Shown here: positions 1,609 to 22,945 of the stretch, one piece after another
Position numbering within the stretch: the stretch's first letter is position 1
How the letters are laid out: each line of letters starts with the position of its first letter
DNA from: a virus
Taxonomy: Duplodnaviria; Caudoviricetes
IMG/VR virus record: IMGVR_UViG_3300022923_000094
Coordinates: 1-25,144 of that record
DNA: 25,144 bases
Strand: one strand, 5' to 3'
Translations under genes and position numbers: made by a program
The notes under the pieces: generated by a model
Told to the model about the DNA's origin: nothing
Seen by the model: the letters and a program-made list of their open reading frames with translations, nothing else
Databases searched by the model: none

Positions 1609-1783
1609 GTTAGAGGTACTGATGCTTCCGAGTGTGATGGAGCAGGGGAACATTGCGTATGACAATGTGAAGGAATGGGACTTTAATTTGTCTCAAGGTC
1701 TTATGATTGAGTTGGAGGATGGGGCAGTGATTTACCTAAACCCGATGCATGTCATAGGTGTAGTTTGGAAAGAACTACAATAA
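1598..1783 (+). CDS. Hypothetical protein (61 aa)
   Basis: ATG 1598 with GGAG upstream; overlaps the previous stop and fills the gap. Confidence 0.55.
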   Translation: MTHRLEVLMLPSVMEQGNIAYDNVKEWDFNLSQGLMIELEDGAVIYLNPMHVIGVVWKELQ

Positions 1784-1786
1784 GGG

Positions 1787-1814
1787 GTTGACATGCGGAC
1801 CATCCGCATGCAAC
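1787..1814 (+). promoter_or_regulatory. Palindrome overlapping a -35 box upstream of the RAMP-like gene
   Basis: GTTG-A-CATGCGGA-CCA-TCCGCATG-CAAC; TTGACA at 1788-1793; no canonical -10 at 17 bp. Confidence 0.5.
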
Positions 1815-1857
1815 AAACAATTACTTTCAACTAGAAGCCAAGTAAGGAGAAAATATC

Positions 1858-2640
1858 ATGGCAACGAAGAAAGCACCACAAGAAGCGGCATTGGAAATTC
1901 AACCGTTGAAGCAGGGTCGCGTAAAGCTACGCATGATGGGCACGACCCCATTGTATTTTAACAGCATGAGTTCGAAGGCTATGCGTGATTTGTTGATTGG
2001 TGGCGGCAAGAAGACTGCTGCGCAGCGCAAAGAGATCAAGCACAATCCAGAGCAGGAGTACCGAGATTCGGTGTACAAGAAGCCGTTTGGGGAGACGTTA
2101 CTTTGTTTCCCTGCACCTGGTGTCAAGGGTGCGATGGCGACTGCTGCGTTGGAGACTGACGGTATTACGAAGACGAGTGTGCAGCGTTTGATCTTTTTGC
2201 CACAGACGCACGTTCAGATTTGGGGCAAGCCTCAGTTGAAGATTGACATGGTTCGGTCTGCGGACATGAACAAGACGCCAGACATGCGGACCCGTGCGTA
2301 CTTGCCGCGTTGGTGTGCGGAGGTTGACATTGCGTATGTGCAGCCGACTTTGTCTGCGTATTCGATTGTGTCGTTGTTGACGAACGCGGGATCGATTGTG
2401 GGTATCGGGGACTTCCGACAGGAGAAGGGCCGAGGATCGTTTGGCACGTTCCAAGTATTGACTGAGGACAGCATGGGTTCGTTCCAAGAGGAGTGGGATG
2501 AGTTGATGTTGGAGGGTCGAGATGTTCAGCAGGATGCGTTGGACAATCCAGAGTATGCGGATGATCAGACGGCGGAGCTTATGCAGTTCATGGCGGAGGA
2601 AAGATCCCGTCGGGATGTTACTCTCGTTGCTGCGGAATAA
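1858..2640 (+). CDS. Stand-alone Cas7/RAMP-like RNA-binding protein (candidate RNA-guided effector)
   Basis: N-terminal strand VKLRMMGTTPLYFN, FPAPGVKGAM (cf. the RAMP IPGSSLKG motif), C-terminal glycine-rich loop GIGDFRQEKGRGSFGTF; TAAGGAG RBS; adjacent to the periodic array. Confidence 0.75.
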   Translation: MATKKAPQEAALEIQPLKQGRVKLRMMGTTPLYFNSMSSKAMRDLLIGGGKKTAAQRKEIKHNPEQEYRDSVYKKPFGETLLCFPAPGVKGAMATAALETDGITKTSVQRLIFLPQTHVQIWGKPQLKIDMVRSADMNKTPDMRTRAYLPRWCAEVDIAYVQPTLSAYSIVSLLTNAGSIVGIGDFRQEKGRGSFGTFQVLTEDSMGSFQEEWDELMLEGRDVQQDALDNPEYADDQTAELMQFMAEERSRRDVTLVAAE

Positions 2641-2659
2641 TACTAGCATTAATAACAAC

Positions 2660-2685
2660 GGATCGGGGGCCGAGCGCCCCCATCC
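2660..2685 (+). other. GC-rich hairpin after the RAMP-like gene
   Basis: GGAT-C-GGGGGC-CGAGC-GCCCCC-ATCC; only a weak U-tract follows. Confidence 0.55.
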
Positions 2686-2820
2686 ATTTAGAGTTACAGC
2701 CGTGACCAACTGGCGAGAGGTGTCTCACATATGCACCGATGTTGGCGGCAAGCTGTGAGTGTCTTAACCGCAGCAATTAGAGGGAAGCTATTCTTCTCCG
2801 TTTCCTGATCTAATATTTTG

Positions 2821-3540
2821 GTCAAGGTTAGATATGTTGAGACGGTCTGGGTGAGGCGCGGTCGAGCACGTTCGGTTAAGGCGGGGTACGGTCCGGTTGG
2901 GTCAGGCGGTCCCGTTTCGTTTGGGTCTCACAGGGTTCGGCTGGGCAAGATGTGGTAAGTTTCGGTGTGGCGGTCAAGTTCAGGCGGGTCCACGTTTGTT
3001 ACGTTAAGGCGAGGTAAGGCGGTCGAGGTGTGACAAGGTCGGTTATGGCAAGTCGGGTTAAGACGGTCGGGGCACGGTCCGGTTTGGACGGGTTCGTTGA
3101 GTTGGGGCGCGGCACAGGCATGGCCCGTTTTGGTTTGGCGGTCTAGGTTGGGTACGGCGGTGTGTGTTGGGTTTCGTTGGGTCAAGGTTTGTTAAGGCGG
3201 TCGGGGTCATTCTAGGTGAGGCGTGATATGTTCGGTTAAGGCGTGGCCTGGTCACGGTACGGCGGTCTTGATTAGGTGCGTTCGGGTTAGGTTCGGTAGG
3301 GTGAGGACACGGTACGGCGGTCATGGAATGATAAGTTGAGGTATGTCGGGTTCGGTCAGGTCGTGTCATGGCGGTCTAGGTTGGGTGTGTTGCGTTGTGT
3401 CCCGTTGTTATGCGGTGTGTCATGGCGGTCCCGTTTGGGTGGGTCGTGTCATGGTTAGATCCGACAAGTTATGTCAAGGCGGTCGAGGCGCGGCATGATG
3501 AGTCACGTTGCGGTCAGTCGGGTCGCGGTACGGCGGTCAA
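2821..3540 (+). repeat. Non-coding array of GDY-NN pentamers punctuated by GGCGGTC; putative guide-RNA array (12 full units + 1 partial)
   Basis: GGCGGTC/GACGGTC at 2841, 2905, 2969, 3018, 3062, 3137, 3196, 3261, 3316, 3370, 3424, 3478, 3532; spacings 64,64,49,44,75,59,65,55,54,54,54,54 (5n+4, or 5n where one extra base is present); about 120 of 128 hand-parsed triplets fit G[G/T/A][C/T]. Confidence 0.9.
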
Positions 3541-3567
3541 CTAAACAGCTAGAAAAGGAGAAAAGAA

Positions 3568-4080
3568 ATGGCTGGTTTTCCAAAGAAAGAACGTCAAAGA
3601 ATTATTGACGATTACTTAGCGGCATCGGGCCGCAACATGTTTCATCCTGCGGAGTTCGTGGATTGGTTGGGTGGACAGCCTGACCATGAGGCGTATGAGT
3701 GGTTCTATGGGATGGAAGATCAAGAAGCTGCACGACAGTGGCGCATACAAATGGCGCGTCAGATGGCGAGTGGTCTGAGGATCGTGGTTCAAGAGTCGGA
3801 CCCCGAGGATCAGGTGGTGAGCATAAGCGTGAGGGAGTATCCTACGTTTATAAGTCCGGTGAGTTTACGCAAGAAGGGTGGCGGCTACGAGCGGTTTGAT
3901 CCTGACAGTGATGACTCGCAGCGTGAGTTGCGGCGACAGGCCGCGACGGCATTGGCGACCTGGTTGGGAAGATACCGTGGTTGTGCGGAGAATTTTGGGT
4001 TAAACTTGACAGCAATAGAGGAGATTGCGGAAGTTCTTAGAGAGAAAGGAGAGAGCGATGTTCAAGAAAATGTGGGATAG
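3568..4080 (+). CDS. Hypothetical protein, probable accessory of the RAMP/array locus
   Basis: AGGAG RBS at 3556-3560, just after the array; P.EFVDWL...PDHEAYEWF..EDQEAARQWRIQMARQ resembles a recurrent phage family; function unknown. Confidence 0.75.
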   Translation: MAGFPKKERQRIIDDYLAASGRNMFHPAEFVDWLGGQPDHEAYEWFYGMEDQEAARQWRIQMARQMASGLRIVVQESDPEDQVVSISVREYPTFISPVSLRKKGGGYERFDPDSDDSQRELRRQAATALATWLGRYRGCAENFGLNLTAIEEIAEVLREKGESDVQENVG

Positions 4081-4300
4081 GTTGACGCGCAAGCGACAGA
4101 CCAACCAGAAGCTGACGAGGAAGGAGCAGATCCTAGCTGAGTTGGACCGAGGAGTTGGGACTGCGAAGCAGTTGGCAGACCGCACTGGTTTAAAGCTGAC
4201 GATTGTGAGGGCGACGATGACGCAGTTACACAAAGCGGGAATGATCAGGGACACTGGCAAGAACGCGGGTCGTGAAGGTGTGTGGGAAGTTTCCCGATGA
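4058..4300 (+). CDS. Winged helix-turn-helix DNA-binding protein
   Basis: EQILAEL..GTAKQLADRTGLKLTIVRATMTQLHKAGMIRDTG...VW wHTH pattern; GGAG upstream of ATG 4058. Confidence 0.75.
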   Translation: MFKKMWDRLTRKRQTNQKLTRKEQILAELDRGVGTAKQLADRTGLKLTIVRATMTQLHKAGMIRDTGKNAGREGVWEVSR

Positions 4301-21145: not shown

Positions 21146-22945
21146 TTACCGTGTTGCGCGGTACATTCCATACAAGCCGCCAGCCAGACCGCCAAGTTGC
21201 GAAATAGTGCTTGGGGCTGGAGTAGTAGTCTGCGAGTACGTTGACTGACCAATAGGCATACCTTGGAAAATGTCTGAGTAGAAACCCAACTCCTGCATTG
21301 GACGTTGGTACTGAGCCATCTGGTTTGCGTAAGACGCATCCAGTTCTGCCTGACGTTGCTGCTGCTCTTGTGCGCCGACGGACAGAAGTGTGTTGACGTC
21401 GTTGAGGTTGAGGCCCTGTTGCGCCTCTCCAAGCTGCGCTTGCTGCATACCCAAGGACCCCAGTCCCTGACCCACGCCTGCAATACCTTGGCCCAACTGT
21501 CCGTACTGACCTGCAATCGCGCCCATCTGCCCTGCGCTTGCCAATCCCATTTGACCAAACTGCTGACCCATCTGACCAACCTGTGCGCCGAGACCCGCTG
21601 CTTGACCAGCCGCTTGCCTTGAGGCTTGTGCCCCTGCCAATCCCATTTGTCCTGCGGACTGTGCACCCTGCATGCCCATCTGCGCACCTTGCATCTGAGC
21701 TTGACCCGCTGCCTGTGCGCCTTGCATACCTTGTTGTATACCTGCCAGTCCAAGCTGTGTAGCTTGACCCGCTATGTTGGCTCCTGCTTGCGTACCTTGT
21801 TGTGCCGCTTGACCCGCTGCTTGTGCTGCCTGCATACCCGCCTGAGTTGCTTGTAATCCTGTTGCTGCGCCAGCTTGACCAAGCTGACCAGTAAGTCCCG
21901 CTGCCTGTTGCTGACGGCCTTTGGCAGACTCATACGCTGCTTGCGCTCGTTGCGCTGCGCTTTCATATCCCGCCTGACGGAGTCCCGCCGCTGTCTTGGC
22001 CTGCTGCTCTATAACGTTACGCCCAATTTCGGCTGCTTGTACACCCTGACGCGCTCCACCAAATGCACCCGCACCTACCGCAGTTGCATCCATCTGGTTT
22101 CTTTGTATCGCACCAGCCCGTGCTACGTCCTGCATAGCCGCATCAATAACAGACTGCTCATACGGGTTCATGTAATCCTGTATCGCAGACGGATCGAACT
22201 CAGCCGCTGAACCCCGCAACCCTGCAATGCCAGCCTGTGCCGCAGTCAAACCATACTGACCAATCTCATCCGCCGCACTACCAGCCTGTAAAATGTTTCT
22301 CGCTGTGGTTTGACCTTGCTGCTCCATGCGTGTGCCATACTCTGGCAACGCTCGTAGTGCAGTCAGACCAACCTCTTCCGCTTTACGACCACTGCTTAAA
22401 ATATTGCCTGCGGTTTCTTCTCCTGTTCGAGCACCCGCTGTTGCTGCATCAGTTATGCCACGTACCGCACCCGCTGCGGCAAGCTCCCCACGAGCACCCG
22501 CTGCCTGTACATCTGGAATTGCTGCTTGCATCTGCTGAACAGCATAGTCACGATATGGAACCGCGCCTGTATACGCATCGGTAACCATAGTCTGTGCAGC
22601 CGCCAGTGGATTGTACCCTTCCTGCATAGTCTGCAATGCAGTACCAAGGCCCGTGACCCCCGCACCAACGGTTCCCGCACCCGCTTGTAGCATAGGTAAA
22701 TAGGAACCAACGCCAGAAGCAGCGAGTTGCCCCGCTTGCGTTTGCAGTGGGGTACGCCCAGCAACTTGTAGTTGGGCAGGTGTAAGAGCGGCAAGTTGAG
22801 CGTCAGTTAGTTGTCCAGAACGCGCCTCGTATTGGCGCATAGCTTCGTCGAGAATCCCTGTATAGTTGGGATCCGCCGTAGCCATGTAGTTTTTCATCCA
22901 CTCTGGGATATCCTGTACGGCGATTTGTGTGTTTGTTTCTGTCAT
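21146..22945 (-). CDS. Gln/Ala/Gly-rich DNA transfer (pilot/ejection) protein
   Basis: YMNPYEQSVID, AGAFGGARQGV motifs, QAG-rich repeats, C-terminal SQLGGLAGGLYG. Confidence 0.65.
   Translation of the reverse strand: MTETNTQIAVQDIPEWMKNYMATADPNYTGILDEAMRQYEARSGQLTDAQLAALTPAQLQVAGRTPLQTQAGQLAASGVGSYLPMLQAGAGTVGAGVTGLGTALQTMQEGYNPLAAAQTMVTDAYTGAVPYRDYAVQQMQAAIPDVQAAGARGELAAAGAVRGITDAATAGARTGEETAGNILSSGRKAEEVGLTALRALPEYGTRMEQQGQTTARNILQAGSAADEIGQYGLTAAQAGIAGLRGSAAEFDPSAIQDYMNPYEQSVIDAAMQDVARAGAIQRNQMDATAVGAGAFGGARQGVQAAEIGRNVIEQQAKTAAGLRQAGYESAAQRAQAAYESAKGRQQQAAGLTGQLGQAGAATGLQATQAGMQAAQAAGQAAQQGTQAGANIAGQATQLGLAGIQQGMQGAQAAGQAQMQGAQMGMQGAQSAGQMGLAGAQASRQAAGQAAGLGAQVGQMGQQFGQMGLASAGQMGAIAGQYGQLGQGIAGVGQGLGSLGMQQAQLGEAQQGLNLNDVNTLLSVGAQEQQQRQAELDASYANQMAQYQRPMQELGFYSDIFQGMPIGQSTYSQTTTPAPSTISQLGGLAGGLYGMYRATR

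Follow-up and report, generated by a model that had tools for sequence, protein, structure and literature searches.

The first unit of a pentamer array in a phage genome is probably a guide of a VIPR system that would silence a predicted small-terminase-like gene, so that a likely satellite could not divert the packaging of the phage. The array lies in the window, the 25,144-nucleotide stretch of DNA analysed here, a 25-kb virus record with a G+C content of about 50%. The anatomy of the pentamers, the RAMP-like neighbour gene, the match with one skipped base, the identity of the target with its gene context, and the codon register were computed in this work. One protomer per pentamer, a gapped R-loop, transcriptional repression and independence of a PAM are taken from the SUSP1 system. 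We infer the existence of separate guides cut or read at the GGCG|GTC junctions, the role of the HGG protein as small terminase, and that of the phage as helper of the targeted element.

Unit 1 consists of 12 pentamers (2845-2904, plus strand) and extends over 2845..2908 with its GGCG junction. Read in steps of five from 2845, its scaffold triplets are GTC GGT GGC GGT AGC GTT GTT GGC GGT GGT GGT GGT, and the last two letters of the pentamers are TG GA GC CG AC CG AA GG AC CC TG CA. The twelve pairs are exactly those of the preliminary description, which had read them as the Cys motif at the N-terminus of HGGxSTG proteins. The run fits GGY at 32 of 36 letters, compared with 22 for the best run elsewhere outside the array and 28 for the best among 300 shuffled versions of the array region. 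Translation of 2831-2920 in all six frames does not give the HGGxSTG Cys motif, and the peptide is therefore visible solely via the gapped code. A reading of 2845-2904 as coding sequence or coding remnant was rejected for the same reason.

The pattern search that had been proposed together with the decode, including annotation of the matched genes, bore the decode out. The 24-base one-skip pattern of unit 1 had no exact match in 2.9 million viral contigs and none in GTDB genome contigs, and five in metagenome contigs. All five lie in frame in HGGxSTG genes, with the unit matching the coding strand of CEARTR[KN]GTPCQ, which is followed by RC[RS]LHGG, and all five proteins score above the cut-off of NF041373 HGG_STG (47-60 bits versus 29). 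By our own arithmetic, which does not use a base count of the database, 24 fixed bases would match fewer than 0.01 times by chance even in 10^12 bases. The contigs are short; the gene in L005 is truncated (55 aa), and L003 and L004 carry no adjoining replication genes. Unit 1 was also compared, at up to two mismatches, with 401 genomes of the family to which a Rhodobacteraceae isolate belongs; it matches 4 of them, all four in HGG-type frames, and the reversed-pattern control matches none. Over 53 target sites the modal identity at codon positions 1, 2 and 3 is 0.93, 0.91 and 0.45, the first two values being inflated by the choice of sites at ≥20/24. The base skipped by unit 1 is the third codon base, the variable one. 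To judge from these matches, unit 1 likely specifies the DNA of an HGGxSTG gene as a VIPR guide and is not a coding remnant. The codons that it spells are the best conserved of this gene, as found in small integrative elements of marine alphaproteobacteria.

The whole array (2816-3535) is located between the vipr gene (1858-2640) and a conserved accessory gene (3568-4080), and comprises 12 units, each with 8-13 pentamers, preceded by a short leader. The leader unit (2816..2844, plus strand) has, according to the parse, 4-5 pentamers and a GACG junction at its end. Each unit closes with four nucleotides, GGCG or GACG, by which the register is displaced by one base; 267 of 290 junctions are GGCG. 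Entropy amounts to 0.42, 1.29 and 1.10 bits at pentamer positions 1-3, and to 1.95 and 2.00 bits at positions 4-5. The scaffold is G-[G/T]-Y, its second letter being G or T with frequencies of 0.62 and 0.30 over 2781 pentamers, values that may be biased by the prior of the parser. The spacer between vipr and array (window 2641-2815) is 175 nt long here and 30-80 nt in many relatives, and has a short inverted repeat near 2662-2685. A promoter scan of 1700-4200 gave no site, with 1.7 expected. A contig from one RNA library spans 2845-3077 without a difference; being an assembled contig, it is silent on transcription, strand and processing. A second RNA-library contig has the R/S variant at 2879, and most of the array is uncovered in the runs X3 and X5 (contigs were from four runs).

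Some units depart from the regular spacing. Six-base steps within units 5, 7 and 8 (3112-3116, 3250-3255 and 3300-3305) recur unchanged in relatives. In relatives of unit 12, the pair preceding such a step still fits the target, and the step may therefore mark the end of a guide or a recombination scar. In the arrays of L006-L067, entire units are common to related phages in altered order, and contigs from RNA libraries link units at the junctions with those in between left out. The sharing and reordering of units and these joins suggest that units are exchanged by recombination at GGCGGTC.

The vipr gene (1858..2640, plus strand) encodes a RAMP/Cas7-like predicted guide-binding protein of 260 aa. 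All 37 matches listed by Foldseek for its structure model (pLDDT 71) are CRISPR type III/VII effector chains, with a best E of 2.8e-5 and TM values of 0.2-0.4. A profile of 65 Vipr homologues has SUSP1 Vipr (36pp, E 0.0022) as its best PDB sequence match. Residues D177, W178, R179 and R138 of SUSP1 Vipr, which contact the guide according to the SUSP1 structure preprint, align opposite D185, F186, R187 and R146 of the window protein, and these four are invariant in the 65 homologues. From model and alignment, the product of 1858-2640 appears to be a stand-alone RAMP with G-loop and thumb, as defines a VIPR protein. Distant Vipr homologues (29-33%), found in a search of a phage collection, occur as hypothetical proteins in Mycobacterium and Gordonia phages; HTVC023P has no Vipr match at E 0.001.

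The accessory gene (3568..4080, plus strand; 170 aa), a candidate vap gene, matches phrog_15946 weakly and falls into unnamed viral clusters. All 44 relatives with sufficient sequence have it immediately 3' of the array. Neither it nor Vipr has a match in Pfam or NCBIfam. The family A polymerase of the window phage is 53% identical to that of phage 023Pt_psg01 and 49% identical to that of pelagiphage HTVC023P. From this one gene, the window phage is probably an HTVC023P-like marine phage. A 599-aa Gln/Ala/Gly-rich protein with internal repeats is encoded in the virion region (window 21146-22945, minus strand); it has no PHROG match.

For comparison, 62 related loci (L006-L067) were fetched and 59 arrays were parsed alongside that of the window; L065 and L066, where vipr is cut, and L050, which has no sequence after vipr, were left out. 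When 241 distinct guides from the related arrays were compared with 66 HGG-centred loci, 33 matched at a skip of one base and none at skips 0, 2 or 3 or after shuffling. Of the matching guides, 13 have their sites within the HGG gene, with both strands represented; the other 20 match in or near integrase, PolA, primase and AlpA genes, and so are independent of the choice of loci. The test is circular for unit 1 itself because the loci were found using its pattern; for this unit the skip rule rests on the matches in neighbouring genes and on the reversed-pattern control in the 401 genomes. With all target sets taken together, skip 1 places 60 of 242 guides and skip 3 two, while skips 0 and 2 and shuffled guides give none, the sets found with a unit being circular for that unit (units 6, 9, 10 and 12). 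By these counts, skips of 0, 2 and 3 and shuffled guides were rejected as pairing rule. The skipped base falls on the wobble position for targets on either strand.

A guide within four letters of unit 1 is present in 20 of the 59 related arrays, in 18 of them at the first position; as the arrays come from related phages, the 20 are no set of independent events. The variants of this guide correspond to natural variants of the target: the K form fits L001-L005 at 24/24, the R/S form L074 and L131 at 24/24, and the Q form L130 at 24/24. This suggests that the phage follows changes in its target. The motif had been spotted after the fact, and the decode might for that reason be a coincidence in a G/T-rich repeat. 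Such a coincidence has next to no probability and is refuted by the five exact matches, all in NF041373 genes, the empty control, the mapping of guides specifically at skip 1, and the 24/24 fits of the variants.

Close homologues of the HGG protein were found in SAR116 and Roseobacter-group genomes in a scan of half of the genome collection. The best genome matches of unit 1 are 22-23/24 in the Roseobacter group (L074, L130, L131) versus 19-22/24 in SAR116. Twenty-eight loci were compared, namely the five exact matches, the 20 closest GTDB loci, and L125, L133 and L134. In 21 of them the HGG gene points towards a primase, PolA, AlpA or integrase gene that lies on the other strand at a distance of up to about 5 kb. 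The remaining seven have no mobile gene downstream, several of them being on short contigs. In integrase-AlpA-primase/PolA elements of about 5 kb, the HGG gene is the terminal, convergent gene at the far end. The assignments of integrase, excisionase/AlpA, primase and polymerase in the elements are borne out by family scans, and no terL or capsid gene was recognised by eye in 11 element loci.

Further features of these loci were noted. In L003, L133, L083 and L078, the HGG gene stands in the chromosome without the rest of the element, and these are likely remnants. A tRNA-Met or tRNA-Arg gene lies at the far end of some elements (L076 and L082, 13270-13348; L083, 10555-10631), and L076 has no integrase between AlpA and the tRNA. 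L080, L125, L133, L003, L004 and L134 have a stretch in common 50-70 nt before the HGG start, at the end of the element. It contains a TATAAT-like hexamer within a short inverted repeat and is a possible promoter or packaging signal.

With their integrase, AlpA and replication genes, small size and lack of a recognised capsid gene, the target elements likely are VEIME/PICI-like satellites. They could instead be islands of the host, or satellites belonging to other phages, that hinder infection and are silenced as bystander competitors. No attachment-site repeats over 11 bases were found in the nine elements tested, some loci are truncated remnants, and no structural genes common to phage and element were seen, all of which would agree with bystanders. 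Against this stand the gene content, which fits VEIME/PICI-like satellites, and the frequent, mostly leading place of the unit 1-like guide, which has been kept and tracks the variants of its target and so points to a lasting conflict. We consider bystander elements quite unlikely.

A position near packaging genes, which the preliminary description had expected for the HGGxSTG genes, applies to those that are carried by phages. The HGG domain starts the gene directly before terL in Pasteurella phage Pm86 and in L127, and the HGG gene adjoins the pac site in Bacillus phage Flasso. It does not apply to the best-matching targets, which lie in small integrative elements beside primase/PolA, AlpA and integrase genes. 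Among element-type HGG homologues, 70 of 93 match a TerS PHROG, weakly (best E 1.7e-5), while a single HGG protein had no PHROG match at E 0.001. The element HGG protein and the protein in the terS slot of L127 have 34 columns in common, and no solved structural relative of the HGG protein was found. Scans of five related phage contigs (40-58 kb), one of them run without a positive control, found no HGG gene in any; the satellite protein would thus be no copy of the helper's own TerS. Placement in the TerS slot of phages, set against the weak TerS homology, makes a packaging role of the HGG protein likely rather than established.

It is conceivable, since the HGG gene lies at the end of the element, that unit 1 is a VIPR guide on this gene whose filament acts as a roadblock to excision or replication of the element; otherwise the HGG protein might be a regulator or a factor interfering with phages. 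The weak TerS scores would fit such a protein outside packaging, as would the homology to terS-slot proteins, confined to the Cys/HGG domain, the related phages without the domain, and the terminal, convergent position of the gene. On the other side, in Pm86 and L127 the domain does occupy the position of the small terminase and in Flasso it lies beside the pac site, TerS homologues are reported as part of marine satellites (PMC9618062), and the guides match the coding region on both strands. We regard a role outside packaging, or a roadblock, as unlikely.

Besides unit 1, further units point to the same opponents and to others. Altogether 8 of the 12 units map, four to integrative elements and four to genes of rival phages (two large terminases, a ribonucleotide reductase and a virion gene). 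Unit 2 (2909..2972, plus strand, as are all units) matches the template strand of a tyrosine integrase of an element in its catalytic-motif region (TDLTFHDLRHEA), at 22/24 in L080, where the matched gene is an integrase, and 21/24 in L076, with a shuffle maximum of 18. Unit 3 (2973..3021) matches a second site, KHGKFTKEK, in the same HGGxSTG gene as unit 1 (17/18 in L004, L074, L077 and L125; shuffle maximum 16). Unit 4 (3022..3065) matches EVKRIKGK, on the coding strand of the integrase gene in an element that carries an HGG gene, at 16/16 in L125 only, the next best match being 13.

Four units match genes of rival phages. Unit 6 (3141..3199) has as its target a large terminase of phages, matched on the template strand (HLNLPDPTPVQY; phrog_38 TerL), which we take to be T7-like. 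It is matched in about 140 viral contigs, with 118 of 120 inspected matches in an ORF of ≥100 aa on the template-matched strand, and at 22/22 at 16 sites. Unit 9 (3320..3373) matches the coding strand of a phage ribonucleotide reductase (phrog_84) at MINEIGRRVM in about 320 viral contigs; all 120 inspected are in frame, and 52 sites fit at 20/20. Unit 10 (3374..3427) matches the template strand of a phage virion gene of about 125 aa at ITATGTATHY. Its 33 exact viral matches all lie in an ORF on that strand, and the target gene matches the phrog_240 head protein (E 6e-5 to 9e-8). Unit 12 (3482..3535) matches the coding strand of a second family of phage large terminases. The first nine of its ten pairs occur in about 330 viral contigs; all 120 inspected carry the motif EAI[ED]TAQGA, in a gene with TerL_ATPase and TerL_nuclease that is followed by a portal gene. 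L210, a phage with a large terminase among the matches of unit 12, has a vipr homologue (1498-1818; 72% identical over 108 aa) directly after terL, and rival phages may therefore hold related VIPR systems. Other guides of relatives match further sites in the same rival-phage target sets.

No target was found for the other four units. Unit 5 (3066..3140) has 45 scattered GTDB matches, about the chance level, and reaches at most 15/18 in the target sets. Units 7 and 8 together span 3200..3319. Unit 7 has two viral matches, both outside ORFs, and none in GTDB; unit 8 (3265-3319), the decode of which we take to resemble the catalytic start motif of serine recombinases, matches none of 121 genomes. 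Unit 11 (3428..3481) has three GTDB matches in unrelated taxa, about the chance level. Within the 25-kb window, the guides reach at best 12-16 letters of their 16-24, unit 1 at best 15/24, and no self-target is apparent.

As units 6 and 12 match large terminases of rivals, the true target of unit 1 might be a small terminase of the HGG type in rival temperate phages, with the integrative elements as by-catch. The HGG genes of the true phages L127 and L128 match unit 1 at 21/24 and may be silenced by it too. We nevertheless hold a primary target in rival phages to be very improbable. The perfect matches and the second site KHGKFTKEK of unit 3 occur in the element-type protein, the 20 other guides match the integrase, PolA, primase and AlpA region of the same elements, and the 2.9 million viral contigs hold no exact match.

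For the preferred reading of unit 1, a guide against the HGG gene of a satellite, the following course of events is proposed by analogy with SUSP1. Vipr would polymerise on the guide, one protomer per pentamer, and grip the three fixed bases. The two variable bases of each pentamer would pair with the template strand of the HGG gene, the wobble bases being flipped out, and the filament would block transcription of the gene. At the GGCG|GTC junctions the array may be divided into separate guides, by cutting or in the way it is read, or the junctions may merely reset the register. An element could be expected to escape only through residue changes in the Cys motif of the HGG protein. The same array would also silence the integrase of the elements (units 2 and 4), the HGG gene at its second site (unit 3), and the genes of rival phages (units 6, 9, 10 and 12).

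The arrays of this marine phage clade may, as we tentatively propose, be a readable record of its opponents. They would name a widespread Roseobacter/SAR116 satellite family as parasite and the HGGxSTG protein as packaging hijacker, and a single tail-less array would silence, within one host, packaging genes both of the satellite and of no fewer than two unrelated phage families. If this is true, the helpers and hosts of marine satellites could be assigned at scale by decoding arrays of this kind. The guides would serve as a sequence-level pointer to the helper and the hijacking route of a marine satellite family, making both testable, and as a first way into the function of the HGGxSTG domain.

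In literature searches, nothing was found on HGGxSTG genes, or on a helper-satellite link or an HGG target of this phage clade; nor, in the texts searched, were reports of marine VIPR targets found. The text of 10.64898/2026.10.15.759431 mentions neither 'HGG' nor 'marine', and the PDF supplement of 10.64898/2026.04.26.720920 does not mention 'HGG'. Packaging genes and ribonucleotide reductase were not met as natural VIPR targets in the text of the VIPR preprints, as distinct from the target tables in Data S3. The helpers of marine satellites and their route of hijacking are called open questions in PMC9618062. The target elements resemble the marine VEIME satellites and PICIs described there in being small, in having a tyrosine integrase, AlpA and a primase/helicase or polymerase, and in having small-terminase homologues and no capsid gene, a likeness of gene content drawn without sequence comparison. 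The likeness of the window phage to HTVC023P-type phages lies in the family A polymerase, the one gene compared.

VIPR, the skip rule, staggered arrays and the action against satellites are already known from preprints of 2026, at the level of their text, and VIPR arrays have been recovered in bulk (10.64898/2026.10.21.760802). The SUSP1 preprints (10.64898/2026.04.26.720920, 10.64898/2026.04.26.720927) describe one protomer per pentamer, a gapped R-loop on double-stranded DNA, and transcriptional repression without a PAM. As described there, the type II VIPR system of SUSP1 (10.64898/2026.04.26.720920; PDB 36pp) shares with the window a vipr RAMP gene, pentamers with three fixed and two variable letters, a one-base wobble skip, targets on both strands, 9-12 repeats per guide and the lack of a self-target. 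It also has one accessory gene in the locus, to which the candidate vap gene of the window, unassigned to vap1-6, may correspond. The one-base overlap of successive guides in staggered vrRNA arrays (10.64898/2026.04.26.720920, Fig. S18) is found here as ggcG|gtc. Like the window phage, SUSP1 as reported in its conflict with F5 satellites (10.64898/2026.10.15.759431) is a lytic-type phage with wobble-aligned guides against conserved codons of a resident satellite, including a recombinase. The F5 satellites are described with tail genes and no terminase, whereas the elements targeted here have a primase or PolA and the HGG gene. In contrast to the published SUSP1 type II arrays, the window array is without a structured 3' tail and its units abut via a 4-nt GGCG junction; its scaffold is G-[G/T]-Y, its Vipr of 260 aa is weakly like SUSP1 Vipr (E 0.0022), and among its targets are genes for packaging and for nucleotide synthesis from several phage families. 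Since this type of system has been published, the mechanism itself is not new; the targets are.
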